A DNA stretch of 64,000 bases from Amphiscolops sp. MND2022 (Eukaryota): contig OZ076409.1 of the NCBI GenBank assembly GCA_964187785.1, positions 54,810,001 to 54,874,000 on the forward strand, given 5' to 3'. Every line of letters starts with the position of its first letter. Positions within the stretch are counted from its first letter, which is position 1. Shown one piece after another: positions 4,230 through 47,399 of this stretch. Position numbers and translations under genes: made by a program. The notes beneath the pieces are model-generated. The model worked only from the letters and a program-made list of their open reading frames with translations. It did no database searches and was not told the origin of the DNA.

Positions 4230-5385
4230 TGTCATGCCGACGCATGAATATCCCGAATGATCTTGATTACACTACATCCAGGGAAAGGAATACCATTAGA
4301 CGAAAACACGTTTGTAAACTGAAAGAGAATGTAGTTGAGGAAACTACATCAGGCAAAATAAACTTAAACAACTACATGCATCCACCACATTTTATCCCGA
4401 ACAAACTCCAACCATTTATTAACTAAAACCAGCCCCTTTTCACATATACTTGTAAAATCATTTTCATAACATTTAGTCGATGATATTGTTAATGTACCGT
4501 CATTTGATTTTATTTTACCAATTCCATAACATTTAGTCAATGATGTAGTCAAAATACCATCATTAAGTTTACTTCATCCACTTCGGTATTCACAAGTATA
4601 ATCAGTACCATCACCTAACCAGTTAACTATATGTGTAGCGTCATTAACATTACAGTGCATTACTAAATACATATATAGAGTAAACATATTATTACAGTGC
4701 TATGATGTGCTTATGTTACCATCATTATATTAACGATCATACCAAATTTGAGTCATGTAACCATAGCAACATAATTACACACCATTTCTACATTTCAACA
4801 AATTTAGACGCAAATTGCGCAATTACATACCAAGGTGCGAACGAATATCGTAACGTGATTGGTCGATGTGGTCACGTGACCAGCATCGCCATAATTGACA
4901 CAAAGTGAATTGGCGCTGCCATTGGAAAATAGTTATACCTTGACGTGCAGTTACTAACGACATACCAGAAATTCGCAATAAATCAACTTCATACTTTTGC
5001 TAAAACAAACCTTGTTCAGAACAATAAAATCTTAAAACTCAATTACTCTTAAAAATGGTTAATACTCGATCCCAAGCTAGAAGCTCTATCCCAGTATTTG
5101 TGAGTGGAGTAAGCAGAAATGACCGACTCAGCGACACTGAAAGTGAGTGTAGCGTACCAGACCTCCTATCGAGAGGTCAAATCGACGAACTAGACAGAGG
5201 GAATCTCATCCGTACTGAACAACCTTCCGAACGAATGACAATTGATCAACGATTCTCGAATATGAACAAGCAAATCAGTGAACTTACTGGATTAGTTTTG
5301 GCCTTAACCGATAAGCTATCCTCCAATATTGGAGAAGGGGACAATCAAAACACAGCGTCTGACAAGACCTGTACACGTTCCGACA
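4230..5385 (+). repeat. 5' LTR of element A (1156 bp), contains first 110 gag codons
   Basis: TGTCATGCC...GTTCCGACA, direct repeat of 18355-19510. By eye roughly 25-30 differences (~97-98% identity). Confidence 0.95.
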
Positions 5386-5398
5386 TGGTGACAGGAGT
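5386..5398 (+). promoter_or_regulatory. Primer binding site TGGTGACAGGAGT (tRNA-Leu-like), inside the gag frame
   Basis: Directly follows the LTR's CA. 12/13 match to the complement of the vertebrate tRNA-Leu(CAG) 3' end as I recall it (TGGTGTCAGGAGT). Identical in elements B and C. Confidence 0.85.
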
Positions 5399-6567
5399 CT
5401 CTCCAACCAAATACCTGGCGAACCCACAAACGACACACCAGTCTACATCCAGATACCCTCAACCACCCGCAACGCAGTTCGACGATATCGTCAGCGAAAT
5501 ACACCACCTGAGGGACACAATGACAGATACAGTGCAACATCCCAAAATCTTGCACACACAGGTCCCGCTCTTCAGAGGAAACCGGGAAAAGTATAATTAG
5601 TTTGAACACTTACTGCTCAACCACCTCAGACCTCATCAACACAAACTATCTGAGGAACAGAAGCTCACATATTTTCAAAGCCTGTTGCGAGACGACGCAA
5701 TTGAATTCTGGCAATCATTGAAAATGACAAACCAGACCACACTCGCCCAAGTCCTCCGCTACTTCAAGAAGGAGTACGCAAAAGAAGATCTGAAAGAAGT
5801 AGCGAAATACAAATTCGACCAGATGCGCTACGATCCCACAGCAGAAACATTCAACGACTTCCTAAACAAATTCAAGAAAGTAGCAAAACAAGCATTTGGA
5901 GAAAAATCAAGTGATATAACGGAAACATTTCTGTTTGCTAAACTTCCCGTCCAAATGCAGAACGAATTAGCCATGGCTGGGAAACACGATGCGTCCATGG
6001 AGGAAATAAGGACATTCGTCCAAAGACGATGCCAATATGCTCAGCTCATACCAACTACGACACCACAGGCATTCAACCAAATCAGTGCGCCACCGCCCAA
6101 TGCAGCAGCACCTCAGTCATCTAACTCCCAACCACCCCAAAACCGGGAGACAAAACGAAACTTTGACGGACAATGCCGCCACTGTGGAATCACCGGCCAC
6201 AAATGGGCCGAATGCCGTAAGCGCCTCCGTGAGGAAGCACAAAACAAAGCAACCAACCACAACCAACAACAACCAGCCCAACCCACCAACACCCAGGACG
6301 TCAAGCCCAAATACAACCCCAAATTGGTGTGCCAAATATGTGACAAAGTGGGACACTCCGCCCGAGACTGCTACTACAGAAATACAACGACTTCAGCCTA
6401 CAGAAGTATCCCGTATTCCAAGCAGTAGACAGAGGAAAACAAGCAGTTCTGCCGAGATTTCAGACAAACCAAATCAGGGTCTACAACGCGAACGAACTGC
6501 CCCACGCCACCAACGATGAAACTGACAATGTCGAAGAAACGGAGAGGCACGATGACGTAGAAGACCC

Positions 6568-6574
6568 AAAAAAC
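6568..6574 (+). other. -1 ribosomal frameshift heptamer A AAA AAC (gag-pol, element A)
   Basis: CCA AAA AAC TTC TAG at the gag end. The -1 frame is open from here into the pol ORF at 6772. Confidence 0.75.
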
Positions 6575-9500
6575 TTCTAGAGCCACGTCATCCTCAGCAA
6601 TCATACAAAAGTGCGCTATTAAACCGACAACCACAAACTACGACTCCGACTCGACTACATACTGGAAACAACACGGGGTGGCAGTCCCGTCCTTCAACTT
6701 ACACTAAAGAGACTACAAGCTTCGTCATCACCAGACACTCGACTGACACTTATACCATTAAACCGAAAAAGATGAAGCCAAGACTCGAAGTCAACAACGT
6801 CAATCAGCTTCCCTCCAACAACACAGCCCGCGACCAACCAAATGCTGATACACCAACCGCATCCGTCAAACCACTGAAACCAGTAAAGAAGCCAAAATAC
6901 GAAATACGTCAGTTGAGCGCCACCCTCCAACTCAACAAAAAAGACAGGATGCTATACGTACCACTTCAATTCCGTGCATATGAGAATTTTGGTCTGCTCG
7001 ACACTGGCGCAATTCAGAGTGCCCTCTCAGAAGCCGAACTCCGACGAACCCTTACTGCCCACCCAGCGGCCCTTCTTGAAGAACTCCCAGCCCCGGAGTT
7101 CAAAGTGGAGATTGCTAATGGTAACATTGTACCCGTCAGAAAACAAGTTCTCTTGCGATTTTTCATCGGTGGCAAAATTTTCGAAGAGACATTCATGGTC
7201 CTCCCGACGATGGGGAACATCCTCATAGGAATATCTTTCTTCAAAAAGTACTCCGTCACTTTAGACTTAGCCAATAACATCGTTAAATTCCCGGACATCA
7301 CACTCCAACTACGATCAGTCAACGGGAAATTCAAAAACAAACTATTAGAACTGAAGACCACACAGAAGATAATACTTCAACCCAACCAACAAGTATTCTC
7401 CCCAGTAGTGATTGAACGTGATCTGGGCGACATCACCGTGACAGTCGAAGGATTACCAGCCTTTGAACGACGCACAAACCTACTGGTATCTCCGGCTCTA
7501 AACGAAACCCAGGAGGGCCGGACTCATGTCCAGATCACCAACACGCTAGATTATCAGATGACGATCAATGTGGGCACAGCTGTAGCATCACTCAAAATAC
7601 TAACGCCGAAGCAGGCAACCAACCTACAGCCGATGACCGACCATCAACTGAATCTGATTTCTCAGTACCCAGACGAAGCCGAAGCTGTCCTGAACCAGAT
7701 TTTCCAGGACCCTACCACCAAATCAGACAGACGATGGTATCCTACCCCTGAGACGTGTGACGACCCATCAAAACTGAACAAGATCGAGAAACGAATCTAT
7801 GAGGAGATCGTCAAACTTAGGGAACAGGAGAAACTTGACCCAACGACGAGCGATGAGCAACGGCATGAATTTCTGGCAAACTTTCCGTGGGAACAGTCAA
7901 TACTGAGTCCGCACGAAACACAGCAAGTTGAAGCATTATTGGTTAAGTACCATGACATTTTCGCCAGACATAGATTGGACATCGGAATCAACACTGAATT
8001 CAAGATGAAGTTGACTCCTAAGCACGACGAGCCAGTTTATGCACAGAGTCTGCCTACACCAACGAACTTGAAAGACGACCTCCTAGTTGAGCTGGCGCTG
8101 ATGCAAGAGTACGGCATAATCAAAACATTGCCGTGCAGCAAGTACCGATCACCCATCTTCGCCCAGCGAAAACCGAATGGAAAACTGAGAATACTCGTGG
8201 ACCTTAGGAGGATCAATCATCTGTTGAAGAATGACTACAACCAGCATAACCATCCAGTGACAACGATGGCCGATGCAGCGCAACATATGGCTGGGAAGCG
8301 ATATTTCTGCAAACTGGATTGTTCGCAAGCGTATCACTGCTTGCAGATGGCAGATGAACAATCAATCCAGTTGTTTGCATTCAACTTTGGAAGCAGGACG
8401 TTCGCCTTCCTCAGATTGGCACAAGGATTGAACCGGTCCCTGTCAGCCTTCAATAGTACTGTTCGAGAGTATTTGGACCCCATGGTCAAGGCCGACAAGT
8501 GTGCACAGTACGTTGACGACATCGGCCTTGCAGCCAGCACTGTTGAAGAATTAGTCGACAACATAGAGGCAGTGTTCACCAAAGTCAGACAAGCAGGTCT
8601 CAAACTTTCAATGTCGAAGTGTGCAATCGGTCATCCCGAGATCGAATTCCTTGGCAGAAGCATCACCAGCAAAGGCATCGGGCCCATCGAGAAAAATATT
8701 GACGACTTCCTGAGAAATATCAAATTGCCGACTTCAGTGAAATCACTTCAGCGATACATTGGGTTTGTACAATTCTACCGACAGTACATACCGAGACTAG
8801 CTGAGAAGTTAGTGCCTCTATACAAGTTGTTGCAAAAGGACGTCAAATTCCAACTCACGCAAGTCCACAAAGACGCGATATTCGACATCAACGAGAACTT
8901 GGCGAATGCTGCTAAGATGTCATTGAGGTTACCACTTCCAGACAAACAGTTAGTGATCATGTGCGATGCTAGCGAGCATGCAGCTGGATACGTTCTCTTG
9001 GTTGAAGACTACACTGAGATGAATGACGGATCGACGAAGTCATACGCACCAGTAGCCTTTGGTTCACAAAGGTTTACCGAGGCCCAGATGTCACTCACTA
9101 TGTACGCAATAGAGTTCTTGGCTATGCACTTCGCCTTCGACGAGTTAGCTCATATCTTGAGGGGTGTGAAGAAACCAACCATAGTCATGACGGACAACAA
9201 AGCCCTCACAAGATTCTTTCAGTCAAAGCGGATACCACCCAAGTTGTGGAACTACTGCGACTAAGCCCTCCAATTCGACTTCGTTCTGGCCCACGTCCCT
9301 GGCGTCGAGAATCCAGCAGCCGATTACCTTTCCAGGATCGACATCAATCCAGCAGACAGGATCCACCTCAAGCTGCACGACGAGATACCGGTCTTCAAGG
9401 TGGAAATCAACCTGGCATCCAAGACGCCCAAACAAGACGATGACGAGGAGGAGTACATCCCGGACGACCATGATGTGCCAGATGTCACCACGTCATCGAA

Positions 9501-11501
9501 CCCAACATTACAAACGCTGATGATGATGTTCCCACAACAACACCGCGAAACTGAGGAACATTACAACAGACGTATCGAGGGGATGAGATCTCAGATACAA
9601 CCATTTGTGACGCCCTCTGACCCAGCTCTTCTCTTCAGCCGATTTTACCGACGGGACCAGGTCCACATGGTAAATCAGGTATGCCCTTCGGAGGTTTCAG
9701 AAATTGTTGAGGCTCAAAGCGTAAGTAGTGACGTACAACGAGTAATTAGGATCCTTACTGTCCAAGAAACTCCTCCGAACCATGTGAACTTTGAAAGAAC
9801 CTTTTTTCAAAAACTGTTCAAAAACCGCAAAAGACTTGAGTGGTAAACAACGTCTTGTACAGACAGTTTTTTGATAATGGAGGGCACCTAGCTTACCGGC
9901 AAATTGTAGTTCCTCCAGAAACTACTGAAGCCATAATCAGGACGATGAATGGCGACCCCATGCAGGGACACCCTGGCGCTTCCAAAATGCTAAGTGAACT
10001 AAGAAAAAGGTACTACATCCCAAACCTAACCGAAAAAGTCTAAGTACTTGTAAACAACTGCCAAGAATGTATTAAAGTGAAACCTGCAAAACCGAACACT
10101 CTGATACTTCCACTGGAACCAATTTATGACCCCTGCAACGGTCCTGAAGATGTCCTTGAAATCGATCTCGTAGGTGAGTTACCGCGATCTAATGGGTACT
10201 CACACCTTCTGACGGCATGTGATTATTTTTCGCGCTACCTGTTTGCGATCCCGATCCGCAAACCTGACACGAAGTCTGTCGTCGAATCTCTGCTAGACAT
10301 TTTCACAAAACATGCATAAGTACCGAAACACATTATCACCGTCAAAGGATCTGCCTTCACGTCACAGGTCATAGCCGAATTGATGGACAAAGCCGGAATC
10401 AAAGTCTCTCACGCAACGATTAAACATGCCCAATCCATTGGGATGGTCGAGAGATCACATCAACGCTTGAAACAAATCCTGAAAATAAACGTTTCCGTAG
10501 ATCGACCACAGTGGGACCGATACGTTAATCTCGCTGTGATGGCACACAAAACAACTTACCATCAAACCCTGAAATGTTAACCGACTGAAGTTTTCCACGG
10601 CCGCGTGCCATACAACGCGCTAGATTTGAAATTCAGCAACCCTCTCAACCCGCCTCGAAACGCCGTTGACACGAAGACAATAGTGGATAACTTTAATGCG
10701 AAAGTCAAAGAGGTACACACCAACATAGTCCGTGCTTTCCATAAGTACAAGGCGTACTACGACAGGAAAGCGCAAGCGTCACCCTTAAAAGTAAACGACT
10801 TTGTCTTTTTACTGAACCCTAAAATTGGCAAACAATCCGAAAAAATCCCTTTCAAATGGGAAGGGCCTTACAAAATTGTCAAAGCCTTGACTCAATCGAA
10901 TTATATTGTCAGAAAAGTTGATACATTCAGAACGCAGTGTGTACATAGAATGCGGCTCCGCCCATTTGTACCACACGATCCGATTGAAGATATACACGAC
11001 GATGCATCCCGACACTGTAGTGACCCTGACGCAATTGACGATCAGTCAATATTCAACGACAATCTGCCTGAACTCGAAACGCCACCGTCGGCTGAAAACA
11101 CAGTGGAACTAGACACAAACGAGACTGACACAATCGATTCTGAGCATGGAACAATCTATTACGAACACAAAAGGGTTCACGAGGTACCACCTCTGTATAA
11201 CCCTCTACCTGAGACCGTTCACACTGAACGTGCGTACCGATCTGAAGCTGAAAATCAATCTGATGAAATAGACATACCGTCTCCTGATCATGAGCCTGAA
11301 CAACGCATCCAGCCAAATAATGATGCGGCATCGACCACATCATCTGCCGAAACTTCCCAGCCAATTACACGAAATAACATTACCCGATACAGCCTTCGCG
11401 AGGCACCCGTGCCTAAAACGTTTGACAATTTTCTTGTTCATGAACTGCAAGCAAAGCCCGCACTCTTAAAAATCATGCAACGCAAATCTGCAAACCAATA
11501 G
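6574..11501 (+). pseudogene. pol: pol of element A (protease, RT, RNase H, integrase), disrupted
   Basis: LLDTGA protease, YVDD RT, CDAS RNase H, GHPG..CxxC integrase Zn motif, IDLVG core, WEGPY. Stops at 9262, 10041, 10317, 10578 and a frameshift near 9843. Confidence 0.95.
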
Positions 11502-13063: not shown

Positions 13064-16000
13064 TTAGGATTCATCAGAAGATTCGATCCTCATAGTACGT
13101 TTTCCCCGACGACTAGTTTTCACTAAACCGTCATCTGACAACTGATCTTCTTGATCGGCCGACCCACTAGCAACTAATGACAATACTAGCTTTTTGCCGC
13201 CTTGAGGTTTCCCTCCAGTTCGACGTCCTGTAGACGACGGCGTTTTCCTCCCACTACTCCTGCGAATGGCACCACGAGTCTTTGACGGTATGGCAGATTT
13301 AGAAGTAGTAGACGCAACCACATTAGTATCCTCTTTCGGCGTTTTCAATTTCACGTCAGATTGACTGCGAGGCCTTTTAGATTTACTTCCTGATCCTGAC
13401 GGCAGTGCAGTAAGTTTGGGAGAAGCACGGATAGGGCTAGCTGCCATGATCTCCATCACATTCAGCTGTCCGAGAATAGACGACCTGTAATCATCCACGA
13501 TAGGCACTACAGGTGCCTCGGGTCCTTTATCCAATAAGGCTACGCAAAATGATAAGCTCTGATCCAGCCCGACTTTCAGTAATTGGTCCCAGGGCTTGGC
13601 CCGAACACTATCGGACAGACGAGAGACTTGCATGTTCGTCGTCTCGGCAATACGCATTAGGCCACGCAAATCACAGCGTGATTTTCCAACGAAGGAATGT
13701 CCGAACCAACTACGAACTAAATGTAAGCTTGAAGCAAGTTCGTCAGGGTCCAAAGCGGTAGCGACGTCGTCAACAAACTCAGCCTGATAACTACTGACAA
13801 CAACCACACTGAGCACTAAGTCTACTATTTGGCGCAATTGAGCACACCGACTCCAATGAGGATAAAAAAGCCACATAGCAATCACATCGTCCACAGAAGG
13901 AAGCTCGTCCACACAAAACGACCACCGCTTCTTAAAGAATTGCGTGACTTCTCTGTACTGCTGCTGTACTACACCGCCGTCGTCCAGATCGACTAGTCCG
14001 TGGGCAGTCAAGACAGCACAGGTCTCCACTAATGAGTCCACACGACGATCATCCGAACCCTGGTGTATAAGCACTGGATCAAACGGTGTCAAACTCAGAT
14101 GCTTCGGCCAGGTCCGTTGCCATAATCCACTTAGCCCACGACACAAACCCACCAGCATCTTCTGTACTGCCTTGTAAAAGAAGGATAGTTGGGAACTGAT
14201 GTCGTAGCGGAAAAATTGCCCGAAATGTTTCCTGTACAGATGGGCATCGACATCCACACAATCAGAGTCAATAACTTGAATCAATGCTGTAATCTCGTAC
14301 TCTGCAGGAATACTGGTAACTGGGTAAATGAACCTCATTAATCCGCGCAATAAGTGAGCTAGTTCCCTCTACACAACAACGCCGTAGTCTCGACCACGTC
14401 CACACAGTCGAGGACAATGCTTCACCACTGCAAACAAAGTAAAGTACAATAGTAGCTTTAGCATCGCAAATGAGTCCTCACTACTACGACGGAAAAGATA
14501 ACACACACAAAAAAAACATCTTTTCTCCTCCCTTTATACAACTAATTGTCTCATACTCACTTAAATCCAAAACGAGCCGCAAGATAGCAAACCGAGGACG
14601 AATCATCGCGTCTTCCAACACTTGGACTTCCAGTGGAGTAATCGGCTGTAGTTCTGAGGTGACGTTTGGACGATGAGTCCCGAAATACAACGATAAATCA
14701 TTCCAGTACTCCAAAATTTCTGCACAGACGGATGCTAACTGAGTGATGTCCTCTCCACCGACACGTACACACTAGAACAACAGAAACAAAATTGCGTTTC
14801 ATAACCAACCTCCAAAGAGCTGTCCAAATACATAAAACCTTATACTACACTTAGCAACTCCAAAAAACAAAAAAAAACGAAGCTAAAGTCACAAATAGCG
14901 ACTTCAGCAAACTACTTGCATTACTTTATAACATATTCACCTGTCGTAACAACGGCAATCGATCCAAAAACGTCGCCTGGACTACAGGTAGCATTCTCAC
15001 ACGGAAGTATTCTAAGACACTGAGCGGGTCCAATCCTGAAAATTCCACCCGGAATTGCCTCTGCACCTCATTGAAAATTGACTTTGCTGTTAGCAGTCCA
15101 ACCACGAGAGGCGTCTTGGGAGCTACCATGCCCGCCACTGCTCTCCCAACGTGAGTCTCTCCCTCGACCGCCATTGTTTTTAGCAATGTTCTGTCCTTCA
15201 GACATGCAAGCAAGGGTACCACGTTGCCCAGCATCCTCTTCTCCCATCCAGTTCCATCAGCCACCAGAGCGAGTACCACCGATTTCACACCATGATTGCC
15301 GATGATGTGAAGCTCGCCACGCCACTGCTAGCCACTCCGACGGATGCTGACGCCAATACATGAACTCGCCTCCACAAGGGTATCCAACTGCTCCACAACA
15401 TACGGATAACACCCGTACAGTATCAGACTCTAAATAACAAATAACGTCCCGAACACAACGACATTAAAACTACAAAGCAACCCCAACAATCACATTATAC
15501 ATGATTTAACAACGCGGTACGACCCTCTACATGTCAAAGAAATATTATCTCAAATAACCTGACAACGCGCGTAGTCCAGCGTCCGGCACTCGAAATGTAG
15601 TTCATTCGCCATGCAACTTCGCCAGGCATCCATTGAATGGAGCACCCCCTCGATGGACCTCGCAACCAGGAAGCTAGATATAAAATTATTCAGCCACAGA
15701 TAACCCACACCATCGTCCGGCAAATGTGGTCGCGCCCCTTCTGTTGCCTCAGCTTCTTCAATAGCCATGCGTTCTTCGACTGTCAGGTTCAGGTCCGTTT
15801 CCATAAAAACTGGCGGTTCGGTAGAACGAGCAAGTCTGATCCGGCGGTCCTCATCTGCAGATACAGGCCTGCAGGACTTGTCTAGGAGCGGCCTGTGAGT
15901 CATTATCCTATATTTCTGCTCCAAACGGGTGTGCTCCACCCCCTTCCAATGATCCCACAGAGATGAGATCCCGCGCACCGCAATGCTCAGGTCCGCCCGG

Positions 16001-17447
16001 CATAGCGGATAACGAGCGTAACCATCAATCACTCTCTTGTTGCGAGGAAAACCAACGAAGGTCCCCACAACACTCGACACAAAATAAGAAGGTTTCAGCG
16101 TCTTGATCTTCTTAGCACGCGCTGGAACAAACAAGTGAAACTCAAAAAAAAACTTTTAAATCTTAGTATAGAGATGCCCTTGTAATCACTAAAATCTTTC
16201 CCCCTAAAACCCCCCTCATGATCTTATGAGATACTTACCAGGTGTAACACCAGCCGACTTCGCAACACTGGCCGGCCCGACCACAGCACTCTCGCCGAAC
16301 AATGATGGCGCGACTGACTGCTGCAAACTAGCAACTGAGTGAGTCACAGGGACAGCAGATCCAACCGACACTATCTCAGCAGGCAATGTAGGAGTCACAG
16401 GCACATCGTCTCCAGGGATGGCAACACGCAAACCACTGACAGGTTTCAATTGAGATACAGCCGAGACCAATCGCTGAACGAAATCGTCCACAGCTACCGC
16501 TCCCACAGTGCCTAACCGACCCAGGGTGGATTCAACTGTTGCCTTGACAACACCAGCCAACTCCTTTTCCAACCGAGTAATTGCAGCCACCACAGTGTCG
16601 ACACTCAAAGCGGAATCACTCGCGACACCTGGAATAAATTACAAAGGATAAACAATGCTGTCACCATACATACGTCACCCCTAACAATAACCTCTCCAAC
16701 ATTACCCTTATGTCAGTGCAAATCAAGGGACGACTGTCATACGGTACTACCAGTAGAAGATTGAAATGATGCCTATCTTACGCCATAACATACAGAAGAT
16801 ACCAGGTTGTTCACTTACCACTCTGAGTGAAGCAGTAATCCCTGAGCCCGGATTCGCACGCACCCACACTCGGTTCATCACCTGACGACGCTCTAGACTG
16901 TAGCATCCGCCGCAACCTGGCAACAATATCGGTCATATTCAAGGATTCTACAACACACATGGGGAAAAATCGGCCAGACAGTTAATCGGCTTAAAACAAA
17001 CGTTCCAACAATTTACCCAAGGTAATAGGTCCAGGGAAGAGCCTACAGAGTGCCGCTCAATAATCATATCCTGCATTAACGATGCTATGCACACACACAC
17101 ATTACCTTGATGAGTTCCGAAGTTAAACACAAATGACAAATGCCTGCCCTTATCAACAGACCATCAATACAAAGAAAACAATACGAAAACGTTTTGGAGT
17201 ACTCACGGAATTCACTAGAGAGAGCTATTTCGAGTAATGTAGTAGCGGTTTCCACATTGGCTTCATCTACTCGACCGGCATACTGACAACATACCGACTG
17301 AGTCGCACCCTCTAGTAATTCGTCCACTGATGCAACGAGACCTTCCTCGTCCGACAAATGGTCCAAACTAGACAGCTCAGCTAACGCTCCTTCTGCCGCT
17401 TCTACTAATGATGCAACCTCTCCTTCCGATAATTCTCCAGCGGCCAT
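13064..17447 (-). pseudogene. Antisense spliced zinc-finger / hAT-like cargo gene of element A (decayed)
   Basis: Predicted exons 17447-17207, (uncertain ~16916-16819), 16628-16239, 16121-15559, 15429-14941, 14771-14561, 14427-13064, with GT..AG introns. Premature TAG at 15328-15330 and 14369-14371. Alignable by eye to the element B cargo protein. Confidence 0.75.
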
Positions 17448-18354: not shown

Positions 18355-19510
18355 TGTCATGCCTGACGCATGAATATCCCGAATGATCTTGATTACACTA
18401 CATCCAGGGAAAGAATACCATTAGACGAAAACACGTTTGTAAACTGAAAGAGAATGTAGTTGAGGAAACAACATCCGGCAAAATAAACTTAAACAACTAC
18501 ATGCATCCACCACATTTTATCCCGAGCAAACTCCAACCATTTAATAACTATAACCAGCCCCTTTTCACATATACTTGTAAAATCATATTCATAACATTTA
18601 GTCGATGATATTGTTAATGTACCGTCATTTGATTTTATTTTACCAATTCCATAACATTTAGTCAATGATGTAGTCAAAATACCATCACTAAGTTTACTTC
18701 ATCCACTTCGGTATTCACAAGTATAATCAGTACCATCACCTAACCAGTTAACTATATGTGTAGCGTCATTAACATTACAGTGCATTACTAAATACATATA
18801 TAGAGTAAACATATTATTACAGTGCTATGATGTGCATATGTTACCATCATTATATTAACGATCATACCAAATTTGAGTCATGTAACCATAGCAACATAAT
18901 TACACACCATTTCTACTTTTCAACAAATTTAGACGCCAATTGCGCAATTACATACCAAGGTGCGAACGAATATCGTAACATGATTGGTCGATGTGGTCAC
19001 GTGACCAGCATCGCCATATTTGACACAAAGTGAATTGGCGCTGCCATTGGAACATAGTTATACCTTGACGTGCAGTTACTAACGACATACCAGAAATTCG
19101 CAATAATTCAACTTCATACTTTTGCTAAAACAAACCTTCTTCAGAACAATAAAATCTTAAAACTCAATTACTATTAAAAATGGTTGATACTCGATCCCCA
19201 GCTAGAAGCTCTATCCCAGAATTTATGAGTGGAGTAAGCAGAAATGACCAACTCAGCGACACTGAAAGTGAGTGTAGCGTACCAGACCTCCTATCGAGAG
19301 ATCAAATCGACGAACTAGACAGAGGGAATGTCATCCGTACTGAACAACCTTCCGAACAAATGACAATTGATCAACGATTCTCGAATATGAACAAGCAAAT
19401 CAGTGAACTTACTGGATTAGTTTTGGCCTTAACCGATAAGCTATCCTCCAATATTGGAGAAGGGAACAATCAAAACACAGCGTCTGACAAGACCTGTGCA
19501 CGTTCCGACA
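18355..19510 (+). repeat. 3' LTR of element A
   Basis: Direct repeat of 4230-5385 (offset 14125). Preceded by an imperfect purine tract AAAAAAGACCCGGAG. Confidence 0.95.
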
Positions 19511-19553
19511 ACCAGAACGATATTCTCTGTTTTTTGGTCAAAATAAAAGAAAC

Positions 19554-19930
19554 TGTTACGACTTACTTGCGGGGTGTTGTTTTGAGCAGTCGTTTTAGTT
19601 CTTTTAGGAGTTGACGTAGGACCAAAAAAAGTGTTTTCAGTTTCAGAATCAAACTCTTCTATACTTTGCGGGTCTTGTTTGCAGATCGAACTATCAATTT
19701 GAGCATTTTTTGGTTTTCTGCTAATTTTTTGGTCGATCAGAACTAATTTCCTGCCAGACGGACGTTTTGATCTCGTCCAAGTCTCCAGTGTGGAATCTAG
19801 GATATTTGCTAGGACCAGCAACTAGGTTTTCAACAGTATTTGTTTCAGTTACTGACGTCTCAAAGTCAGCAGAGACTAGTTAATTTTACTGCTTTCCTCT
19901 TCTGACTTCCGGTTGTTATTTTCGCTTAGG
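19554..19930 (-). mobile_element. Old LTR remnant of the same lineage with decayed Gag N-terminus (right limit uncertain)
   Basis: Ends ..AGTCGTAACA like the B and C LTRs. Minus-strand translation across stops/shifts gives TGSQKRK..NLVAGPSKYPR..QKMLKL..TPQVSRN, resembling B Gag TRSQKRR..VAGPSNPKSPR..QKEMLKL..PTICRN. No PBS follows. Confidence 0.7.
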
Positions 19931-21259
19931 ACAAAAGAGTTCTAGATAATTTCGAATTTTTTACTGAAAATGTTTACAAAATTGATGCACCAAGAAACTA
20001 CTGATAACTGCACTTATATTAACAAAGAAACAAAATTATATCTTCGCAACATGATTTGTTCCTCACCTAAAAATTCAAAGCAATCGGAATTTTATTAAAA
20101 TAAGGTATCAAAATAATAGGACTAGTTCACCAAGAAACTTGGTGATTCATACTAATTCAGTCTGGCATCTAAAATTCAGTTCTGAAAATTCATGGTCGCG
20201 TCTACCAAACGTCACGTAAATTTATAGTCCGTTTGAATTTTGGCAATGAATGCACCCTACACGTGAACAAGTACTCAATTCGTAACAAAAACATCGGGAA
20301 ATTTGGTATGAAAATGATGACGTGCAATGATTACTGCGACTGAGACGAAAGAATGGCTGTTTTTGAGAAAATTGGAAAGGAACAAGAACACTGGAGATTT
20401 AAACTTTGTACCACAAATATGCTTGAATAAAACAAAGATACTCAAATTGATGTAGTTTCATCATGATTAAATACACACTACAACATTTGCACCCTTTTTG
20501 CTAGAAAAATCGTTAAGTAAAAATGCAGCAAAGACTTGACGACCAACAAACAATTCAATTTACATATTTGAACAACCTTTTCGGATAGCAGTGTGAAACA
20601 ACAACTACCTTCAGTTGACGTCGACTTTACGTCACACACGTATTTTAGAGTGGCATGTTGAGCTATTCAAAATTAAAAAATTGGACGTTTCGTTGAAAAC
20701 TAGTGAAAAACTCTAATGTGGCGTTTCTAAAGTGACTTTGTAGTTTGATTCGGGATGTGGATCATACAGCACTTTAAGTGAATATGCTCGATGAACGAGA
20801 AATAAGTTCATACTATGTCTTACGAAACAGCTTTATCGAATGATTGAAATGCACATTAGCTCGTTTTTATGTTTCTTATGAATCAGTCTAGTTTCCTAGG
20901 AGGAAACTCTTTTTGGTCGGAAAGCTAGCACACAGGTTGAGCCCTCCTTTAGGTTTGAGGTAGCGTTGACGTTTGTACTAAGATTGGCCATAATTGACGA
21001 ACGACTGACTTAGATATTTCTTCAAGCTTCTCAAAATCCATTCCTATTCTATTACTAGTTACGTCACATAAATTATTGCTATTGGCTTGAGAACGGTGGG
21101 ATAGTTCCAGTAGTGATGCTATTGGTTCCTTATGCTGGCAAAGCTGAGTTTTGATTTTGTCTTAAGACGTACCTTGCGTCGCAAATATTTTTTAGAATGC
21201 ATTCTTGTAATCCGAGTAGCTTCAACAACTGTCTTGCTATGATATTCAAGTATTGTTTG

Positions 21260-23770
21260 TGTTACGACATATTGTCGGGTCGTTTTGAGTAGAACTTATT
21301 CTTACTGATTTTGTTGGAGTATAGAAACTTCTAGTTTCTTCCTCTACCTCTTCTTCGGTATTTTCTCTAATGATCCCTCTTGTTTCAGGTTTCAAGAGTT
21401 TTAACATCTCCTTCTGGGATTCGATAAGAAGATTCTTAATTTCCGAAGTTATTTCCTCTTTCAAAGAGGCTCTCAAACTTTCTAAGAGACTATTCTCAAT
21501 CCGGGGGGATTTTGGATTGGAAGGTCCCGCTACCTCATCGTCCTGGTTCAAAGGACAAGAATTTCCTACCACTATAGGTGAAATCAGGCCTTCACTTACG
21601 TTCTCACTGGTGCTTTGCTGATCATTTCTTCTTTTTTGGCTTCTCGTTGTAGACATTTTGTAGAAAAGTTTGGATTTGAAGAATTGAATTTCTTTCAAAT
21701 ATTTTCTGACAAAAGTAGAATAAGGTGAGAGTGAAATTGAGAATTCGACTGAATTATACAATTACTAAGGACTGAGTCCCTCAATCATCAAATCCTATCA
21801 TATTTATACCCTCTTAGCATCATTTGATCACGATCATAATCCCTAATTTCCTTCGAACAATTAGTCATTTCCTGTTTTATCGATGAAAAAATCACGAAGT
21901 TCCCAAATTTGCGCTGACATTCCGTCAAATTTTAAGACACGGCAAACCTAATCTAGCATTAGTCATCAACCGTAATCATATTATTTCAGCTCGGCGTCCT
22001 TTTATTTCCTCCCAAGCAGGAAGTAGATATTACTTCAGTCTGTCAAACCGGAAATGATTCCCTGTTTTACTGCTTTGGTTCGCGGGAAATTGACGCTGAG
22101 ATGACGCCGGCATGAACAACTAATGCCTGAATTTTGATATTTTGCTCGAGAAAAATGCTATGACTAATGTTTTCAGCCCTATAATTTCCAATGATGCTAA
22201 AGAGGAAGGAGAAACAAGCTCAAAGAATTAGCAACAATCTCAAATTAGTTTCAAATTAAATGATTAACGATTAACAAAATAAAGCAACGACACATTGGCG
22301 TTTGGTGGATTGATGGACTAGGTTGTCTGAATCAGACTTTTGTCCAAATTTATTAATACTTCACTTACAAATAGCGTCTAATATCATTTTAGCGCTTATT
22401 TGGTAAATATGCATAATACTCTGTCAACAGATTTTAACTTGTACATGAAATAGTAATCTTGAACAAAACATCTGACGGTATGAGGACGGCACTTCATGGA
22501 ACCTCTGAACAGGCAAGAGTCCAAAACCTTCTAACACCAGATTCCATTCATTACAGAACGCACAAATGTAATACAAACATTTACTCTTGATTCATCCACG
22601 TTAGGGTTAGAATAATGCACATTCTGATTAGGGGGTGACGACGTACCGACGTCCAATTAAACAACAAGGTTGTAGCACACACTTTATGCAGTACAAAAGT
22701 ACAAATGTATGAAAATATATTTCCAATATGAAAATATCATCGAATTACTTTCGTCATGCCCATAAACTGTGACTTTCACCTACATTATACTGGGACTTCC
22801 ATTTCAACTTAAATTTTGGAGTAAAATTTATCCGACAAAGGAAATATTTGACGAAAACGTGGCATGGGACTCCAAATTCCCTTTTAATTATTTTGTTGGA
22901 ACACCAAGTACTTTAAACGTATTCCTAGCCCTAATTCAATTTGATTGATATTCATCATAACTTCTGGGTGGATTAAAACAACTCGTCTTGATGGAATTTG
23001 GACGTACCGTGGACGTACGTATTAGTATTAGGCCTGGTCCAACATAGTGGACGTAACGCGGACGTAAATTTGACGTAGAATTAGTCCTCGCCGAGAAGGC
23101 AATGCCGTGACGTCACTATGGCGGAAAATTGGAATGATTTCAAGTAGTGTATCTAATATAGGCGGTAAATTGGAATGGTTCTCTAGTGAGCGTGGACGAA
23201 ACGGTGACGTCACGCTGTATACTTTCAAGTCTGCTTCTTACCGACATCTAATATACATGTATCCTTTATTTTGTTTACTTAACGCAGTACCGACGTCCTA
23301 ATCCGCACTAATTGCTGTTCAAAGTGCAATTAAGCTGCCTTTCTTAGAAAAGGAGTGGATATCTCAGTGTGTCATCTCAATGTAGTTTCTATTTTAGATT
23401 CAGATAATGTCCTTTTTTCAACGGTGGTTTTGGGTATATTTCTATTTAGATCGGTCTATGGTCTTTATTTCATTGCGAGTTTTAATTTAGTTTTCAGGTG
23501 GCGAATGTTTCTATTTTGGCGTACTAAGGACGTCCTACCGGATGTGCGTGAAATCATCTTATTTCAATTTTAATTTCATTTCTCATTTTTGTTTAAACTT
23601 TTCGTGAGTTGGGCGTTCGTTTTCGTATTCTTAGTCACAGTTTATTCTAAGGATAAGGTTTTAAAGTTACCAGTTGAAGTAAGATCTGGGGAATCTCAGA
23701 TTGCCTCCGTGACCTCTCCCGATCTTCAGTCGTCTGCAACCACAAGCCAGACCGGGAGCGGGCTGTGACA
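21260..23770 (-). repeat. 3' LTR of element B (2511 bp)
   Basis: Direct repeat of 34987-37497 (offset 13727). Minus-strand termini TGTCACA...GTAACA. Confidence 0.95.
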
Positions 23771-24518: not shown

Positions 24519-24824
24519 TGTTGACGCTGTGCCGGCGTCGTTTTTTATTGGCTGCGAATTGAATTAATCCGCTTGGCCAAGTTTGTCAACGTTATGCTGA
24601 CGTCAATTTCGTTAGCTTAGCTAACTTTTGTTTTGTCACCGTTATGATGACGTCATTGTAGATTATAGGATTAATTTTCCAACCCTCATAACCTTTTTGT
24701 CGACGTTATGCCGACGTCATTTTCGTCGATATTTCAATCGATCTATAGTGCCGACGTTATGCCGGCGTCAGTTTCGTTGGTGAATAGCCAACTTTTAGGT
24801 TTTGTCACCGTTATGATGACGTCA
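24519..24824. promoter_or_regulatory. Array of six 22-bp repeats (approx. TGTCRMCGTTATGMYGACGTCA) in a putative bidirectional promoter
   Basis: Copies start at 24519, 24584, 24634, 24698, 24749, 24803; spacers 28-43 bp. Three copies end in a perfect TGACGTCA (CRE). ATTGG (CCAAT) boxes near 24479 and 24547. Lies between two divergent ORFs. Confidence 0.7.
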
Positions 24825-24856: not shown

Positions 24857-27800
24857 ATGACTTCTCCCCATCGAGTGGATCCTGGTGTGCAGAGTGGCAA
24901 CGAGACGCAGTATGTGTTCTCAGAGGGGGACGTGTATCCGAGCGATGCTGATAATGTTGGTTTGGCAGGTGAGTTTGTCATTCCTTGGTCCATTAAGCTG
25001 TTGCGGATAATACTTTGCATAGATAGGCCTTTTCCATGCCCGTATTTCCACCGCTTAGATTTTCTGACGCGTCAAGACAACAGGAATGTGTGTTTTTAGT
25101 TCCTGCTACGACTGTTGTCGTCCCTTCGCCGGTTGTCCCACCTGAGGAACATGCTGTTGCGAGTGCTACTGTCCCTGCGAGTCCTGTGCCACCCGTTGAA
25201 GTTCCTGCGGTTGCCTTTGTTGTTTCTGAACCTCCTGCTCCTACTCCTGGAGTTACTGATGTCATCGTTCCTTTGATTGAGGTTGCCGATGTAACTGTTG
25301 GTGCTGCTGCCTCCTTGACTTGTGCCCCAACTCCTTCCCAACAAGACGACTCAGATGTGCCACTTTCGTCTTTTCTTACGAAGTCAAAGAATACTGGGTT
25401 GTCTTCTCCTCGCGTAGGTGAGGACGTCTGCCCCCCGGCGAAGAAGAAAGGAGAATTGGTTGAGAAGACTGTTGCGGAAGAGGGAGCTGTCAAGAGTGCC
25501 ATAGCTTCTCCCAATTTCTCTCGGTATCTGCCTGATTTTGCTGCTACTTTCGGTAGAATAGAATCGCCTTCGCCAGCAGCCCAAGGTGAGTTGTCTTTAG
25601 TTTGTTTTCTCTTTATATGATTGGGGGTTTGTGAAATTGGGTACGATGTCATTGGTTTGCTTTATTATTGTATGTGGGATTCGTCTGTTATTATAGTTGC
25701 ACCTCCTACTCCAATTGTGTCATCTGGGAAACGACGTCGTACCGTCACTTTGGCGACTGTTGCGCAGTCACAGACCTTCCAGATCGAGAGTAGCGGGGGT
25801 GAAGAATCGCAGGCAGGGATCGCTGCCTATACTTCCCAGCAAGCTGCTTTGTTTGGTGAGGCAGTCGCTTCAGAATTGGAGACTCGGACTGTGGAGCCCT
25901 TCGTAACTAGTGAGTGAGATTTTCCTTTTGCTCTCTTTCTTCTTCCTCTCTTTTTTTTTTTTTTTTTTTTGAATTAGCTGTGTCATAGCATACGGTCGGG
26001 AAGTTTTGGGTGGTTTACCTGGTAGTGGTGAGTTGTTGAAGTTGATTGTTGTTGTTTTTGTTGTAGAGTTTGAAGAGTTAGTGACACGAGTAGAGGCAAG
26101 TCTCGAGAATGTGAGTCCGGCACGACGACGACCACCACGTCCCCAAAATGTGCGGAATCGTTTGCGTCGCAGTATGGTCAAAGATCACCCGATTTTTGAA
26201 TTGTTTGTGACTGGATCGAGTTCCGGGGTTGAGACCGCTTTCTTCTGTACCCTCTGTCAACGGGACGTCTCAATCGCGACCAAGGGCGTCCGTGAGATTA
26301 GTCGGCATTTTTCGAGTGACAAGCATTGGTTGTTGGATGCTACTTACCGTGTCCATCAAGGCTTGCAAGTTTATAACAAACTGCTTGATCCCATGGAGCT
26401 AAGTGACGCGCAGACGAAGGAGTATCTGTCTCGGCCATTTAAGGAGAAGCCTGAAGGTTTCAGCTTTCCGGAGGATCTCTTGCCTGCGTGCACCCGGGCT
26501 GATTCGAGTGTTCCCATCATGACGATGATCAACTGTCTTGTGGAGCTGCTTCGTAGTGGAGGTGACTATCTGTTGTTGAGGAAGTTGTGGGGCCATTTTC
26601 GCGCTACCCTTGGTACAGAGAACCCACTATACAATATGACTTGGAGTCGAGGAGAGTCTTTGGTGAGTTTCTGGCTAACGTTTCTGTGACGACTGTTGTT
26701 TTTCTGGTTTTCTTTCTTCCCCCATTTTCTTTGAATTCGTGGTATCTGTACTTAATCGTTCCTATTGTGTTTGGTAGTCGTTGCTGTGTCAGGGTCTGTT
26801 CCCTCGTGTTCTTCGTGCCCTGATTGCTCGGATTGGTGATTTCAAGAGCTACAGTGTCATCTTCACGGATCTGGGCAGTGAAAAACAGTGTCTTGTACGG
26901 ACGTGGGAGAAGCATGTGATGCTGGAAGTGTGCATCGATGTACAGTCGGCGGGTCAGCGTGTTCCCCTCGCTGAGTTGAATTCCTTGTCTTGCATCCTGG
27001 GGAGCGTTCCTGGCGGACAACTGCCGATATCTGTGGAGGGTGTGAGTCCTTCGCTGCTGCGAGTGTTGAGCGACGTCCGCGAGGATGGTTGCCAGTTCAT
27101 CCTCAGTCGCAATTTCACCGACGAAACCTTCCTCAGTTGTTATCGCCAGGCCCATCAGGAAGTGTTGGGCATGATGGAAGTCACCGCCATGGTCGACTAT
27201 CTGATGCTGCGTTTGAGGGGTGCTTTGCGAGAACCGTGGCTGGAAGATACTGTCGTGCTCCGTCGTTGTGTTGTCGCTGGCCAAGTGTCTTTCCATGATC
27301 TCCGAGAAGTTGCCTCTGAACTGATTCCTGTGTGGAACTCTGTGAGGGAGTTCGTCCGTTACACTGGGCCCCGTCACATTAAAAGCGAAACTGACATGGT
27401 TAGTAGTCCTGGTTTAATGGGTCTGCTTACTTGTTTGTGTGGTAATTTTCCTCTGTTTTCCTTTTTCGGTTTTCCCTTTTTTGAGCAATTGGGGTTTTAT
27501 TGGCGCGAGAGTACACTGCTGTTGTTATGTTTTAGATGAGAGGCACTGACAGTCAGATTTATTGTGATAATACAAATCGGCTGCGACTGGGGCTCCTTGT
27601 ACATATGCTTGATCTTTGTAAGTGGACGTCGTTTCATCGTCGTACTTTGAGGTTGATGGTTAGTACATGGGTTTGTTGTTTAGATCGATGTACGTTCAAG
27701 AAGCAGCTATCTGGTCGTGAAGACTATGGTTTCCACTGTTACATGGAAATCTGCCAGTTTATATACTGTTTGCTGTCTCGTACTCGCCTGCTTTCTGGGT

Positions 27801-28882
27801 TGCCTGATCTTCACGACTGGGAGGCTTACATGGATGTATCAAAAGTCGAGACATTCAAGAAGGTAGACACCGCTGATTTCCTGCTAAACCACAGTTTCGG
27901 AGAAGAATTGCAACGAGGCAAGACCGGTGAGATGCAGGAGTTCCGTAATCGTTGCCGGGAATTTATGGACCGTCTGGTGGACGTACTGCTGGGGTCTAAC
28001 CTTGTTGCGTCAGATTTCCTGCAGGGTGTTTATGCTTTCTGTCCCGAACTCCTGCTTGAAGGCGATGATCGTTACATCTTCCGCCTATTCAGTAAGTTGG
28101 TGCGAGTCTTGGAACGGAGCGGAGCTCTGAGCAGTGAGGAGGCTAAATCCGGCTCTGAAGAATTTGTGACTTTTGTTGTGGACGCGCGACGCCGGCATAC
28201 TGATGCTGAGAGGAGTGCTGAAGATATTGTGGATGTTGTGAGTTTTCTTCTAAATGATTACAGTTTCTTGGCACGGAAGGATTTGTGCCGTATCCTGAAG
28301 TTGTGTTGCCTGGTCATGCGTCGTCCTGCCCCCGGTGGCCCTGAAGTGAGAGTCTCCCTAGATGGTTGTGTCGTGCCCGCAGGAGTTGTTGCTTCCTGTC
28401 TGCGTGGAGTACAGAGTTATGTTCGAGGTCCTGATTTTAAACTGGGGTCCTTCTTTACCCAGCACACCATGGACTGTGTTCGTGATGCTCTTTCTGGTGC
28501 CCGAGATTTTATGACTGCTTCTTCAGATTTTGACCCCTGGAGGCGTATCTGTCTACTTGATCGCGATGAGTTTGTTCGTCATTACAGCGAGTTGTTCGAG
28601 GCGCACATAAAGCGCAAGAAGGATGAGTCTTACCAACGATTCCGGACTGCTAATCAGCGTGTGCGTAGGAGTGCCACTGATGTCAACGTGTTTGCTGCGT
28701 CGTCTGGTGGTCGTTCCGGACGGGGGAGCTCGTCTGTTGCTGGAAGTGCTGCACTTAAAACACCGACTAAACGACCTGCTGTCCCGGCATCAAAAGAGTC
28801 CAAGAAGAATGAGTCGTCCGTCAAGAATAAGAAAAAATCCAAGAAACAGTCAGGCGACGCTTCTAGTTCGAAGAAGTGTTGA
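24857..28882 (+). CDS. Antisense 7-exon gene of element B, ~1102-aa zinc-finger / hAT-transposase-like protein
   Basis: Exons 24857-24968, 25100-25585, 25697-25909, 26067-26662, 26778-27398, 27536-27617, 27684-28882. All introns GT..AG (donors GTGAGT, GTTAGT, GTAAGT), phases compatible, 3309 nt open. Zn finger FCTLCQRDVSIATKGVREISRHFSSDKH; Lys/Ser-rich tail. Confidence 0.8.
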
Positions 28883-29018
28883 ATTTGTTGAATTGAACTT
28901 TGTTTGATTGTTTGTGTGTTTTTATTGATTTTGTATAAGTATTCAGTTGTAGTATTATTATGGAGTCATAGTAAAAGAAAAAGTTTGAAAGACTGTAGTA
29001 AGTCTAGAATTGAAATTG

Positions 29019-32000
29019 TCAGATCGGTTCGGTCTGGACTCCCGATGATACTTTTTGGTCTTCCATCATCGTAGTTATAGCGTCAAGTCGTCTGAAGTCA
29101 GGCTTAGCTTTAGGTTTAGGGTTGGGTCGCAAGTTGTACTTTGCTATTTTCCTCGGATTATACCCGACAGTTGTAGGCGGAGATATCGGGGGAATAGGCG
29201 GGCTTTCTGTGGGAGGGGGGCGACGTATGTATGGGTTATCCCCCACATCTGTTGTAAGGTTTGAAAAATCCGGAGACGGCGGCGCTGCGACGTCTGTATT
29301 TGCCATTTCTTGTATTTCTACGTTATGGTTGTTTCTTGTGTTTTCCGGCGATTCGTGTTCATCAATCTGCTTTCCAAAATCCATTTCCCATGATACCGCA
29401 TACCATTCATTGTGTGAGACTTTAACTTCTGGGTCAGGAAGGTAATCATTGGCTCGTACTGTGACGTCGGGCAAGCGTTGTTCCGTCACATAAGGTCGTA
29501 TGCGAATTCTGTGTAGTGTTTGTGTATATCTTGTGCCAAGTTTTCGTATTGTGTAGTTGTTGTTCGAAAGCACTTTGATCACTACATACGGTCCTGTCCA
29601 GATGCAATCTTGAAACGCAAACTTTGTCGATTGATTGTCGGCTTTCGGGTTAAGTATGTAGCAGTAGTCATTGATTTTTAAGGGAGCTGCAGTCGCTTTG
29701 CGGTCGTAGTATTTTTTGTATTTGAGATAGGACAGCATGATGTTGTCTTTCGCCGTCGCCCTCACTTCGTCTATTTGTTTTTGGAGTTGTTCTGCTATAT
29801 CCGAGTGGGGGGTGGTCTTCCACTTTGGCTTGATGCCTAATTTTAAATCGAGAACGTTGTAAGGTATACGTCCATGAAATACTGTAGATGGTTCGCAGCC
29901 CAGAGTTTCATGGTATGTTGTATTGTAATTCATTACTGCGATTTGGACATATTTGTGCCACATTGAGCGTCGTTCACCCGTTGATATTTTTAGGGCAGTT
30001 TTGATTGAAGCGTGCGTTCTTTCCAGAATTCCGATTGTTTGTGCATGCTTCGTAGATGCGTGGCTGATTTGAATTTCGAGTATTTGGGCTATTTCTGTGA
30101 CGACTTCTGATCGAAATTGTGAGCCCTTGTCTGATAGGATTAGTGTTGGCAAGTATGCATGTCTTGTCATAACGTCGACAATGCATCGTCCGATTGTTTT
30201 CGCTGTGACATTCTGCGTTGGATATGCAAATAGATAACGCGAAAAGACATCAATCATCGTGACAATGTTTTGGTATCCCGCAGAGTTTGGTAAATTCGGC
30301 AATATGTCTATTTCTAGGATATCTTCTGGTCCTAAGACATGTTCCGTATTGTTGATCATTTTTGGTCGGATTTGGCTGTTGTTGATTCGTTTGTATTTGA
30401 TGCATTCTTCACATTGCATTACCCACTGTCTAATCTTCTTTGCTAATCCTGGGTAGTAGTATTTTGATCGGCATTCTTGTATCATTTTTGTGATTCCTGG
30501 ATGCTTCCCCATTTGTCCATGAATTGCTTTCAAGAGTTCTGTGATTAAATGTTCGGGGATTAGAATTTGATGGTGAGTGACTTGACCACATTCCCCGTAA
30601 TATTTGCGCATTAGTACTCCATCTTTTACTATTAGTCTGTTTTCGTGGATTAGGAGGCGCTTGGCAGTCGGATCAGTCTGCAGAAGGTGTTTGTCGTATT
30701 CTTCACATATCAACTTCTTTTTGATTGCTTTGAAAACCAAATTCGAGTCTTGCTCGACTCTAATACGTGCATCTTCCTTTATTGCCCCAAAGGTATAAGA
30801 TGCCTTGTTTATTGGGATTGGTGTGGTTTCTTTGATGGCTATTTTGATTTTTGTCGTCTCCTCGTCGCGTGCATTTTGTCTAGCTTGTTCTTTCTGCAGT
30901 AGAATTTCTTCTTCCGTTTCAATTGTTTCATCTGGGAGGAAGAAAAGTTGTTCCTCGTCTGCGACGTCCGTTGATTGGAGATTCACTTGAATGGGCTTGA
31001 TAGTAATATCCTCTCTGATTTTTAGTTCAACTCTTTCTTTGGGATTGAGATCTATTCTTGACAAAAAATCGGCTGCCGTGTTTTGCGTACCCGCGACGTG
31101 CATTATGTGGAAGTTGAATTGTAGTACGTAATCACATGCATTCCACAGAGTGGGCGGGATTGCTTTTGTTTGGAAGAAGCGGGTTACCGATCTGTTGTCG
31201 GTCATCACGAGGGTTGGTAGGGTTGTTTCCCATAGAATATGGCTGTATTCAAGGAAGGCGTGATAGATCGCTAGGAATTCCTTGCAGTAAATTGACATTT
31301 TGATTTGAGCCGGGGAGAACACCTTTGATCCGAATGCGACTGGTGCAAATGTCTTCTTTTTCGAATTGAGTTTTTTGTCGTTGTCTTCCTCAATCATTAG
31401 GGCGTAGCCAGAGGCTCGGAAGCTGGCGTCCGTCATTAGGACGTACTGTCGTCCCGTGATTGGCTGTTTGAGTGCTAAGCCGCAAGCTTGTGCCAATGCT
31501 GCGTTAATAGCTTTGTAATGGTCAAGTAGTTCTTCTGTGACCTTGATTTGTTTGTCTGCTTTCAGTAGTTCATAGAACCCGAGCAATTTCTCAGACAATC
31601 TCGGGATGTAGTTGCGATAATAATTGACGAAACCGATGTATCTTTGTACTTGTTTCTTGGATTTTGGAAATCTCACGTTTGCTAGGAATTTTTGAATTTT
31701 ATGGTCTTGCGGGGCGATTCCTTGTGGTGTGATCGTTCTTCCAAGAAATTCGACCTCGGTTACTCCGAAATGGCATTTTTCGATGGTTAATTTGAGTCCT
31801 GCCCTTCTGATGCATTCAAAAACTGCTCGAATGTTGCGTATCAGTTGCGCCACGGAATTGGCCGCTATCCCGATATCGTCCACGTACTGTGCGCATTGAT
31901 CAGCTTTGATTACTTTATCCAAGTATTCTCGCATGAAGCTTGAAAATGCCGACAGGGCTCTGCTCAATCCTTGTGCCAGACGTTTGTATGCGAACGTTCT

Positions 32001-33947: not shown

Positions 33948-33953
33948 TTTTTT
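33898..33953 (-). other. -1 frameshift signal: A AAA AAC (33953-33947) plus downstream stem-loop
   Basis: TCA AAA AAC TAG ends gag. It is followed by a TACGCC..CTGCG..CGTAG..GGCGTA hairpin. The -1 frame is the pol frame. Confidence 0.8.
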
Positions 33954-46943: not shown

Positions 46944-47399
46944 TTAATAAAATCTCTTACAGGATGGTTGTTTTGTTCGTCGTTCATTTCGCTGGATTTT
47001 GTAAACTACGTAATTGCTTAAACACTGTTCAAAAATGACAATTGAAATGTCAAAAATGGACACAGAAGATGGGCAAACATTGCAATAAATTGTCAAAAAT
47101 GATATAAAAATTTTTCGTTTTTTGTGCATACGAACCCTTTATTTTAAAAGAACAATTTACTGACTGTTCGAATAAAAAGTCCCGTAAAATTGATGGATGT
47201 TTTGCGTTCGACATTTTTATATTTTCATACCCATGACAACATTCGAAATTTTGACAAAAATTACTTTAGAACAGTTGACAATTGAATTTTTTAACTTTTG
47301 AAAGGCACCTTTGCATTTTCTCAACAAGCAACATCAAATGTTTTTTTCCTAAAAACCATGTAGGATAGTTCGTGTCGACTTAAAACTCTCTAGATATTG

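Follow-up and report, generated by a model that had tools for sequence, protein, structure and literature searches.

An antisense, intron-bearing gene of likely hAT transposase origin in a Ty3/Gypsy retrotransposon lineage of Amphiscolops

We analysed a 64-kb window of the Amphiscolops sp. MND2022 genome (contig OZ076409.1, here C1, positions 54,810,001-54,874,000 of a 1.07-Gb assembly), which contains two Ty3/Gypsy long terminal repeat (LTR) retrotransposons, element A on the forward strand and element B on the reverse strand. Both carry a multi-exon gene, hereafter the cargo gene, which lies antisense, between pol and the 3′ LTR. We found that the cargo gene is old, present throughout the retrotransposon lineage and under purifying selection. 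The history that we lean towards, at slightly better than an even chance, is that the lineage domesticated a hAT transposase gene, which became a catalytically dead accessory gene with diverged and exchangeable cassettes and lost its introns singly via its own spliced message. That this old, antisense, intron-bearing gene, selected and likely hAT-derived with its catalytic residues lost, now acts as a likely nuclear DNA-binding regulator of element expression is a reading to which we give an even chance.

The cargo gene has seven predicted exons in each element, encoding 1,128 aa in A and 1,102 aa in B, where the gene is open. The 5′ exons were predicted from conserved splice sites and reading frames, and all splicing described here is predicted. 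Beyond three core introns, each gene has three additional phase-1 introns in its 5′ part. In B, the gene runs on the forward strand. Exons 1-3 (24857-24968, 25100-25585 and 25697-25909; 24857-25909 overall) are followed by exon 4 with the zinc finger C-x2-C-x16-H-x5-H (26067-26662), intron i1 (26663-26777, phase 0), a 621-nt exon 5 with a predicted RNase H-like fold and the beginning of a helical insertion (26778-27398), intron i3 (27399-27535, phase 0), an 82-nt exon 6 (27536-27617), intron i4 (27618-27683, phase 1), and exon 7 with a helical domain, a hAT-like C-terminal part and a basic tail (27684-28882). In A, the gene runs on the reverse strand. Exons 1-3 (17447-17207, 16947-16819 and 16628-16239; 16239-17447 overall), again with phase-1 introns, precede exon 4 with the C2H2 finger, whose first Cys is altered in the window copy (15559-16121), intron i1 (15430-15558, phase 0), a 489-nt exon 5 with the RNase H-like region (14941-15429), intron i2 (14772-14940, phase 0), a 211-nt exon 6 which covers the i3 site without an intron (14561-14771), intron i4 (14428-14560, phase 1), and exon 7 with the same three parts as in B (13064-14427). 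Two in-frame stops, one in exon 5 and one in exon 7, interrupt the A gene in the window, and the same columns are open in most other A copies. Six core introns had been named in an earlier sequence-only reading of the window, and all of them have GT...AG ends at these coordinates and the phases then assigned. A candidate Cys-rich N-terminal domain in A was rejected, as the stretch is intron 1.

The antisense genes of A and B are homologous, as that reading had claimed, and alignment of the spliced proteins, the check it had proposed, was significant by three methods. In blastp, the cores matched at E 2e-19, nearly colinearly, with 149 of 797 positions identical (19%). The Smith-Waterman score of the cores was 147, compared with 42.5±5.7 for shuffled sequences, and none of 500 shuffles scored as high. 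HHalign of the clade profiles, built from 17 A and 57 B copies after exclusion of 8 of 82 gene models as truncated or rearranged, gave a probability of 98.05% and E 1.5e-13 over 667 columns, and the B profile matched all 17 A proteins at E 1e-27 to 1e-18. The five segment pairs quoted earlier are all in register in these alignments, and the two introns described as shared occupy the same columns, 238 and 485. Spliced alignment of the A protein on B DNA recovered the three introns of B exactly, and one of the three A introns was recovered with the B protein on A DNA. The N-terminal arms of A and B did not align, and their homology was rejected, with 72 of 300 shuffles scoring equally high; the DNA of the shared introns did not align between A and B either (105/300 and 94/300 shuffles equally high).

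We further studied how widely the cargo gene occurs. Cargo-led genome searches returned at least 100-140 scored matches each, and 78 of 80 loci fetched from them had an antisense pol nearby. To sidestep the bias of cargo-led sampling, we used a reverse transcriptase (RT) motif common to A and B, which has 3,483 exact matches in the genome and none for the reversed control, and took the first 40 matches on contig C1. The cargo core was antisense to pol in 37 of the 40 copies, while two of the remaining three carried cargo remnants around deletions and the last was cut off after pol. The sample comprised 15 copies of clade B, 2 of clade A, and 11 and 12 copies of two newly revealed clades, C and D, respectively. 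In the pol tree the clades branch as (A,(B,(C,D))), and together they form a monophyletic group (0.997) with respect to six other Gypsy sequences. The claim that the cargo is lineage-wide is thus borne out across four clades. None of 20 other Gypsy loci, which were chosen by Pfam score and not by kinship, matched the A, B or A+B cargo profiles, and the nearest cargo-less sister lineage of clades A-D was not found among the Gypsy loci compared.

Outside this genome, public protein clusters from a 1.8-billion-protein library contained 476 cargo relatives at E≤1e-3, and the ten that were looked up all came from ENA contigs. Searches for longer homologues gave either none or, among the best 120 of 202 matches, just further cargo proteins from ENA contigs, with no named hAT. 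P0122 and P0132 are divergent cargo homologues on 12-13 kb ENA contigs, and P0122 is at most 30% identical to anything scored in this genome. Both have a single frame that seemingly runs across the sites of i3 and i4, and this hints at another lineage elsewhere. A JGI metagenome scan with P0122 gave no match.

To estimate selection, we calculated the ratio of nonsynonymous to synonymous divergence (dN/dS) by the Nei-Gojobori method for pairs with dS 0.3-2, a range into which no clade D pair fell. For the cargo gene, the median was 0.055 among 48 pairs of clade B (range 0.045-0.077) and 0.047 for two pairs of clade C, and the one pair of clade A gave 0.084. More distant cargo pairs were saturated at synonymous sites, with pN 0.13-0.41. 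Near-identical A copies gave 0.17-0.46, as decay following insertion would predict. Of the RT-picked copies, 33 had a full-length core; the cargo core was unbroken in 15 of these and the pol stretch in 12.

Four core intron positions were recognized, namely i1 after the finger exon, i2, i3, and i4 after the LDL segment. In the joint alignment, i2, i3 and i4 each fall in a single column, and i1 of clades C and D lies one column off that of A and B; i1 is found in all four clades, and i4 is common to A, B, C and D. All four introns are present in 11 of 11 clade C copies, two of them with shifted calls. In clade D, i2 is present in 10/10 copies and i3 in 8/10; in clade A, i2 and i4 are present in 20/20 cargo-picked loci and i3 in none; in clade B, i3 is at the reference position in 58/60 and i2 in none. 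The internal exons measure 486+135+82 nt in C and D, 621+82 nt in B, where exon 5 covers the lost i2 site and the 82-nt exon equals that of C and D, 489+211 nt in A, and 486+217 nt in L203 and L209. The introns i2 of A and i3 of B had been thought private. Each is indeed missing from the other element, but i2 is found in A, C and D, and i3 in B, C and D. Mapped onto the pol tree, this pattern makes i1, i2 and i4 ancestral and places a loss of i2 on the B stem; for i3, it fits either a gain after A had branched off or a loss in A.

Precise loss of i4 was found in L107 and L141, whose sister L145 retains it, and also in L112 and L113 and in L205; two B subfamilies are among those precisely lacking i4. 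L203 and L209 have precisely lost i3. Of the intron gain or loss inside a retroelement proposed earlier, loss is therefore established, with at least four precise events, but no gain is proven. Each precise loss removed a single intron and left its neighbours, 82-135 nt away, in place. The six commonest junction types at i4 end the exon in T rather than AG, which makes deletion between short repeats a poor explanation, and we consider a spliced template the likelier source. The introns differ in length and sequence between copies but not in position, an argument for their being spliced.

Several copies have unusual gene structures. A duplicated exon brings i4 of L059 to 1,232 nt; L223 likewise has an enlarged i4, of 2,031 nt, with the exon structure otherwise kept. 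Five clade C copies (L197, L201, L202, L212 and L219) have a long i4 of 610-710 nt, in which TGACGT/ACGTCA motifs recur about every 32 nt and resemble the repeat 5′ of the B cargo gene. In L203 and L204 of clade D, the N-terminal arm and the zinc finger share a single open frame of 630-730 codons, a region that is split by three phase-1 introns in A and B.

We compared cargo and pol trees built with FastTree, and tested topologies by the approximately unbiased (AU) test in IQ-TREE. The congruence that had been proposed as a check holds at the deep splits, namely A versus B, the main B subclades and the four clades, but breaks down within clades. For 46 copies, 12 of 43 splits were common to the two trees, and 15 of 24 strong cargo splits contradicted a strong pol split. 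AU tests rejected the topology of each gene on the data of the other, in A (12 copies) as well as in B (27 copies), the p values ranging from 1.5e-38 to 8e-81. Window element B and L087, for example, are 98-100% identical in pol and 98% then 90% identical 5′ of the cargo ATG, but only 49-76% identical over 24,900-29,100, the cargo gene itself. The opposite pattern was found in clade A, with pS 0.05 for cargo and 0.42 for pol. The conflict within clades reflects swapping of the whole gene between subfamilies; inside a clade, the cargo gene moves as a cassette by recombination, not by repeated capture. No swap between clades was seen among the copies compared. Independent recent captures, which incongruent trees had been expected to reveal, or a neutral hitch-hiking pseudogene, could be argued from the tree conflict, but the four clades agree in position, orientation and intron sites, the deep splits are congruent and dN/dS is about 0.05. 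We rejected both on the common intron sites and the dN/dS value, and give them hardly any probability. Instead, the deep congruence and low dN/dS uphold the long co-inheritance under selection that the sequence-only reading had put forward.

The origin of the cargo gene, on which that reading was silent, is likely a hAT transposase. The predicted folds of two cargo exons match the Hermes (hAT) transposase (PDB 8edg/4d1q) in order behind the C2H2 finger, with weak scores, and the predicted succession, in which the finger is followed by an RNase H-like core, a helical insertion and a C-terminal part, would correspond to that of hAT proteins. Altogether, hAT signals come from three different exons, and their order is the expected one. 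The invariant finger (C-x2-C-x16-H-x5-H) has hAT neighbours in the Atlas, and matched zf-BED at E 0.07-0.12 only. Several results weigh against a hAT origin. Pfam scans of the cargo exons and homologues gave nothing at E≤1e-3, neither Dimer_Tnp_hAT nor DUF4371, while the control hAT L153 matched both; cargo profiles showed no similarity to the genome's own hAT proteins in a comparison that held no Tip/ZNF862-type alignment; and Foldseek of exon 7 found no match. PDB sequence searches with the cargo profiles gave chance matches only, and a DUF4371 search of the genome found no match but carries no weight, its controls being equally silent. A conserved DDE triad is not present in the cargo, with positions placed by eye, and no inverted repeats of 60 nt or longer, the lengths sought, flank the cargo gene of A or B. 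Given that the fold scores are weak and the sequence profiles fail, we regard the hAT origin as likely and not as proven. Every sequence-level hAT test having failed, the cargo might instead be a captured host or other gene with an RNase H-like and helical fold, with the rest of the history as above. We consider this unlikely, in view of the ordered hAT signals from three exons; in addition, the best 150 of the 476 relatives carry no protein name, and none of 46 scanned had a Pfam family. Domesticated hAT genes such as SLEEPER and ZBED/ZNF862 are known, but the cargo rides a retrotransposon instead of sitting between transposon ends or at a fixed host locus.

If the hAT origin is right, an intron-bearing hAT gene would have landed in reverse orientation in an ancestral element, between its pol and its 3′ LTR. 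Introns facing away from the element RNA are carried through reverse transcription, and those of the cargo would persist in this way, as they lie on the strand opposite to the element RNA and are unspliceable there. An internal promoter, located somewhere between the ATG and the 3′ LTR, would give rise to a separate spliced cargo mRNA. In B, a 17-nt repeat ending in CGTCA, present in five copies 5′ of the cargo ATG (24589-24824, forward strand), is a candidate promoter or binding array, and across 61 B loci the motif TGACGTCA occurs 100 times in the first 700 nt, which may partly be LTR, versus 43 times in the 7,800 nt that follow. Brief template switches to the spliced cargo message, or conversion by it, may underlie the precise intron losses, and template switching between co-packaged subfamily RNAs in conserved flanks may underlie the swaps. 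Catalysis would have been lost, with the finger, scaffold, Ser/Thr-rich arm and basic tail retained, a combination in keeping with a nuclear DNA-binding regulator of the element.

Such a regulator may be a transactivator or an anti-silencing factor, by analogy with gene23, TRP28 and VANC (see below). The main rival to this role, which we consider rather improbable, has the same history with a protein that acts at the DNA-product stage and not on transcription, binding cDNA ends or chromatin and aiding nuclear entry or target choice of the integration complex. The transposase-like scaffold with its DNA-binding finger and basic tail would suit such a function, and the element pol has no chromodomain match, but a close partner of integrase would hardly be swapped so freely across near-identical pol backbones. 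Active transposases can be poisoned by dead ones, and this genome is rich in hAT elements (150 scored PF05699 matches), so a protein acting on other elements or the host, as a dominant-negative hAT damper or a general chromatin factor kept through host tolerance, was also weighed. We consider this quite improbable, as the cargo has no detectable similarity to the genome's hATs, and selection across thousands of mobile copies would rather point to a replication benefit.

Antisense cargo itself is already known. In plant Ty3/Gypsy elements, the aORF-3R class comprises antisense open reading frames (ORFs) between pol and the 3′ LTR, including the TRP28 ORFs of Retand, gene23 of maize Grande and those of rice RIRE2, and is described as lineage-wide and as encoding proposed DNA-binding regulators (PMC7264820, PMC11963269); an internal promoter and nuclear location are reported for gene23 (PMC7264820). 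The cargo gene has the same position and orientation, with an antisense coding gene at that site in most copies of the lineage. It differs from Retand-type TRP28, as Pfam scans found no PF04195 (Transposase_28) match in the cargo exons, and from plant aORF-3R generally, since the word intron is absent from the main texts of these two papers, whereas the cargo is a seven-exon gene of about 1,100 aa. A 2020 review gives the origin of antisense ORFs as unknown and nested transposable element insertion as unsupported (PMC7264820); unlike that verdict, the cargo offers structural support for such an origin. Similarly, brtn is a conserved antisense extra gene of Boty-like Ty3/Gypsy elements in Botrytis (Zhao et al. 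2011, as cited in PMC8365987), but it is fungal and, comparing by description only, no transposase origin is mentioned in that account. Introns within the transposase gene, as in the cargo, occur in the Tip group of hAT, where BuT2 has a five-exon DUF4371 transposase (PMC3942097); the cargo differs from hAT in lacking a Pfam hAT match and a conserved DDE. VANC proteins, the anti-silencing factors of VANDAL DNA transposons, may offer a functional analogy as element-encoded accessories acting on their own chromatin, but have another fold and belong to another element class; the same source describes multi-exonic antisense Copia transcripts, which are non-coding (bioRxiv 10.1101/2024.04.02.587720). 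Extra ORFs of bdelloid elements are not described as antisense genes or as intron-bearing in the relevant sections of PMC5408684. In the open PMC and bioRxiv literature we found no transposase-derived, multi-intron, cassette-swapped antisense cargo gene, and this form appears new in the literature searched, with prior description elsewhere possible.

Elements A and B have the hallmarks of Ty3/Gypsy elements, with TG...CA LTRs, a primer binding site (PBS), a short target-site duplication and the pol order protease (PR), RT, RNase H (RH) and integrase (IN); neither has env. Element A consists of a 5′ LTR (4230-5385, TG...CA), gag and pol interrupted by stops (5028-11501, PR-RT-RH with integrase downstream) and a 3′ LTR (18355-19510), all on the forward strand; the LTRs are 97.6% identical and the flanking 5-mers agree at 4/5 bases. 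Element B, on the reverse strand, has a 3′ LTR (21260-23770), open frames for gag (35488-33944) and pol (33956-29019, PR-RT-RH-IN; 29019-35488 together) and an identical 5′ LTR (34987-37497). The same PBS-like 13-mer follows the LTR in both elements, and their RT domains are 68% identical. The LTRs of A and B could not be aligned beyond 17-18 nt matches at E≥0.1, as had been reported. The 5-bp target-site duplication of B (21255-21259 and 37498-37502) is confirmed by an empty copy of the insertion site, which adjoins B within a duplication of about 990 bp (20962-21260 and 37498-39186). In both elements, the start of the gag frame lies within the LTR and the frame continues across the PBS (5028-5600; 35488-33944), which leaves a dead-end copy of the gag start in each 3′ LTR (19153-19614; 21761-21246). 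In B, a 246-codon sense ORF (24407-23667, reverse strand) occupies the interval separating the 5′ region of the cargo from the 3′ LTR and extends into the LTR; its start looks conserved among B relatives, and decayed related DNA is found at 54959-56232. A tandem array at 44700-47000 has alternating units of about 110 and 115 nt in about 19 copies. In a different Gypsy family (L166-L171, L182-L185), a sense ORF of about 800 codons 3′ of pol, env-like by eye, is accompanied by an ORF of about 350 codons.

Where the antisense extra genes of LTR retrotransposons come from, and what they do, is a standing question, and here the origin can likely be traced to a DNA transposase. Diverged cargo versions on near-identical pol backbones point to selection maintaining several versions. 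With at least four precise single-intron losses, intron-keeping sister groups and a resident reverse transcriptase, the model of mRNA-templated intron loss becomes testable. If the proposed history is true, the thousands of copies of this lineage would form a natural system in which intron loss from an mRNA template, and domestication element by element, can be followed.
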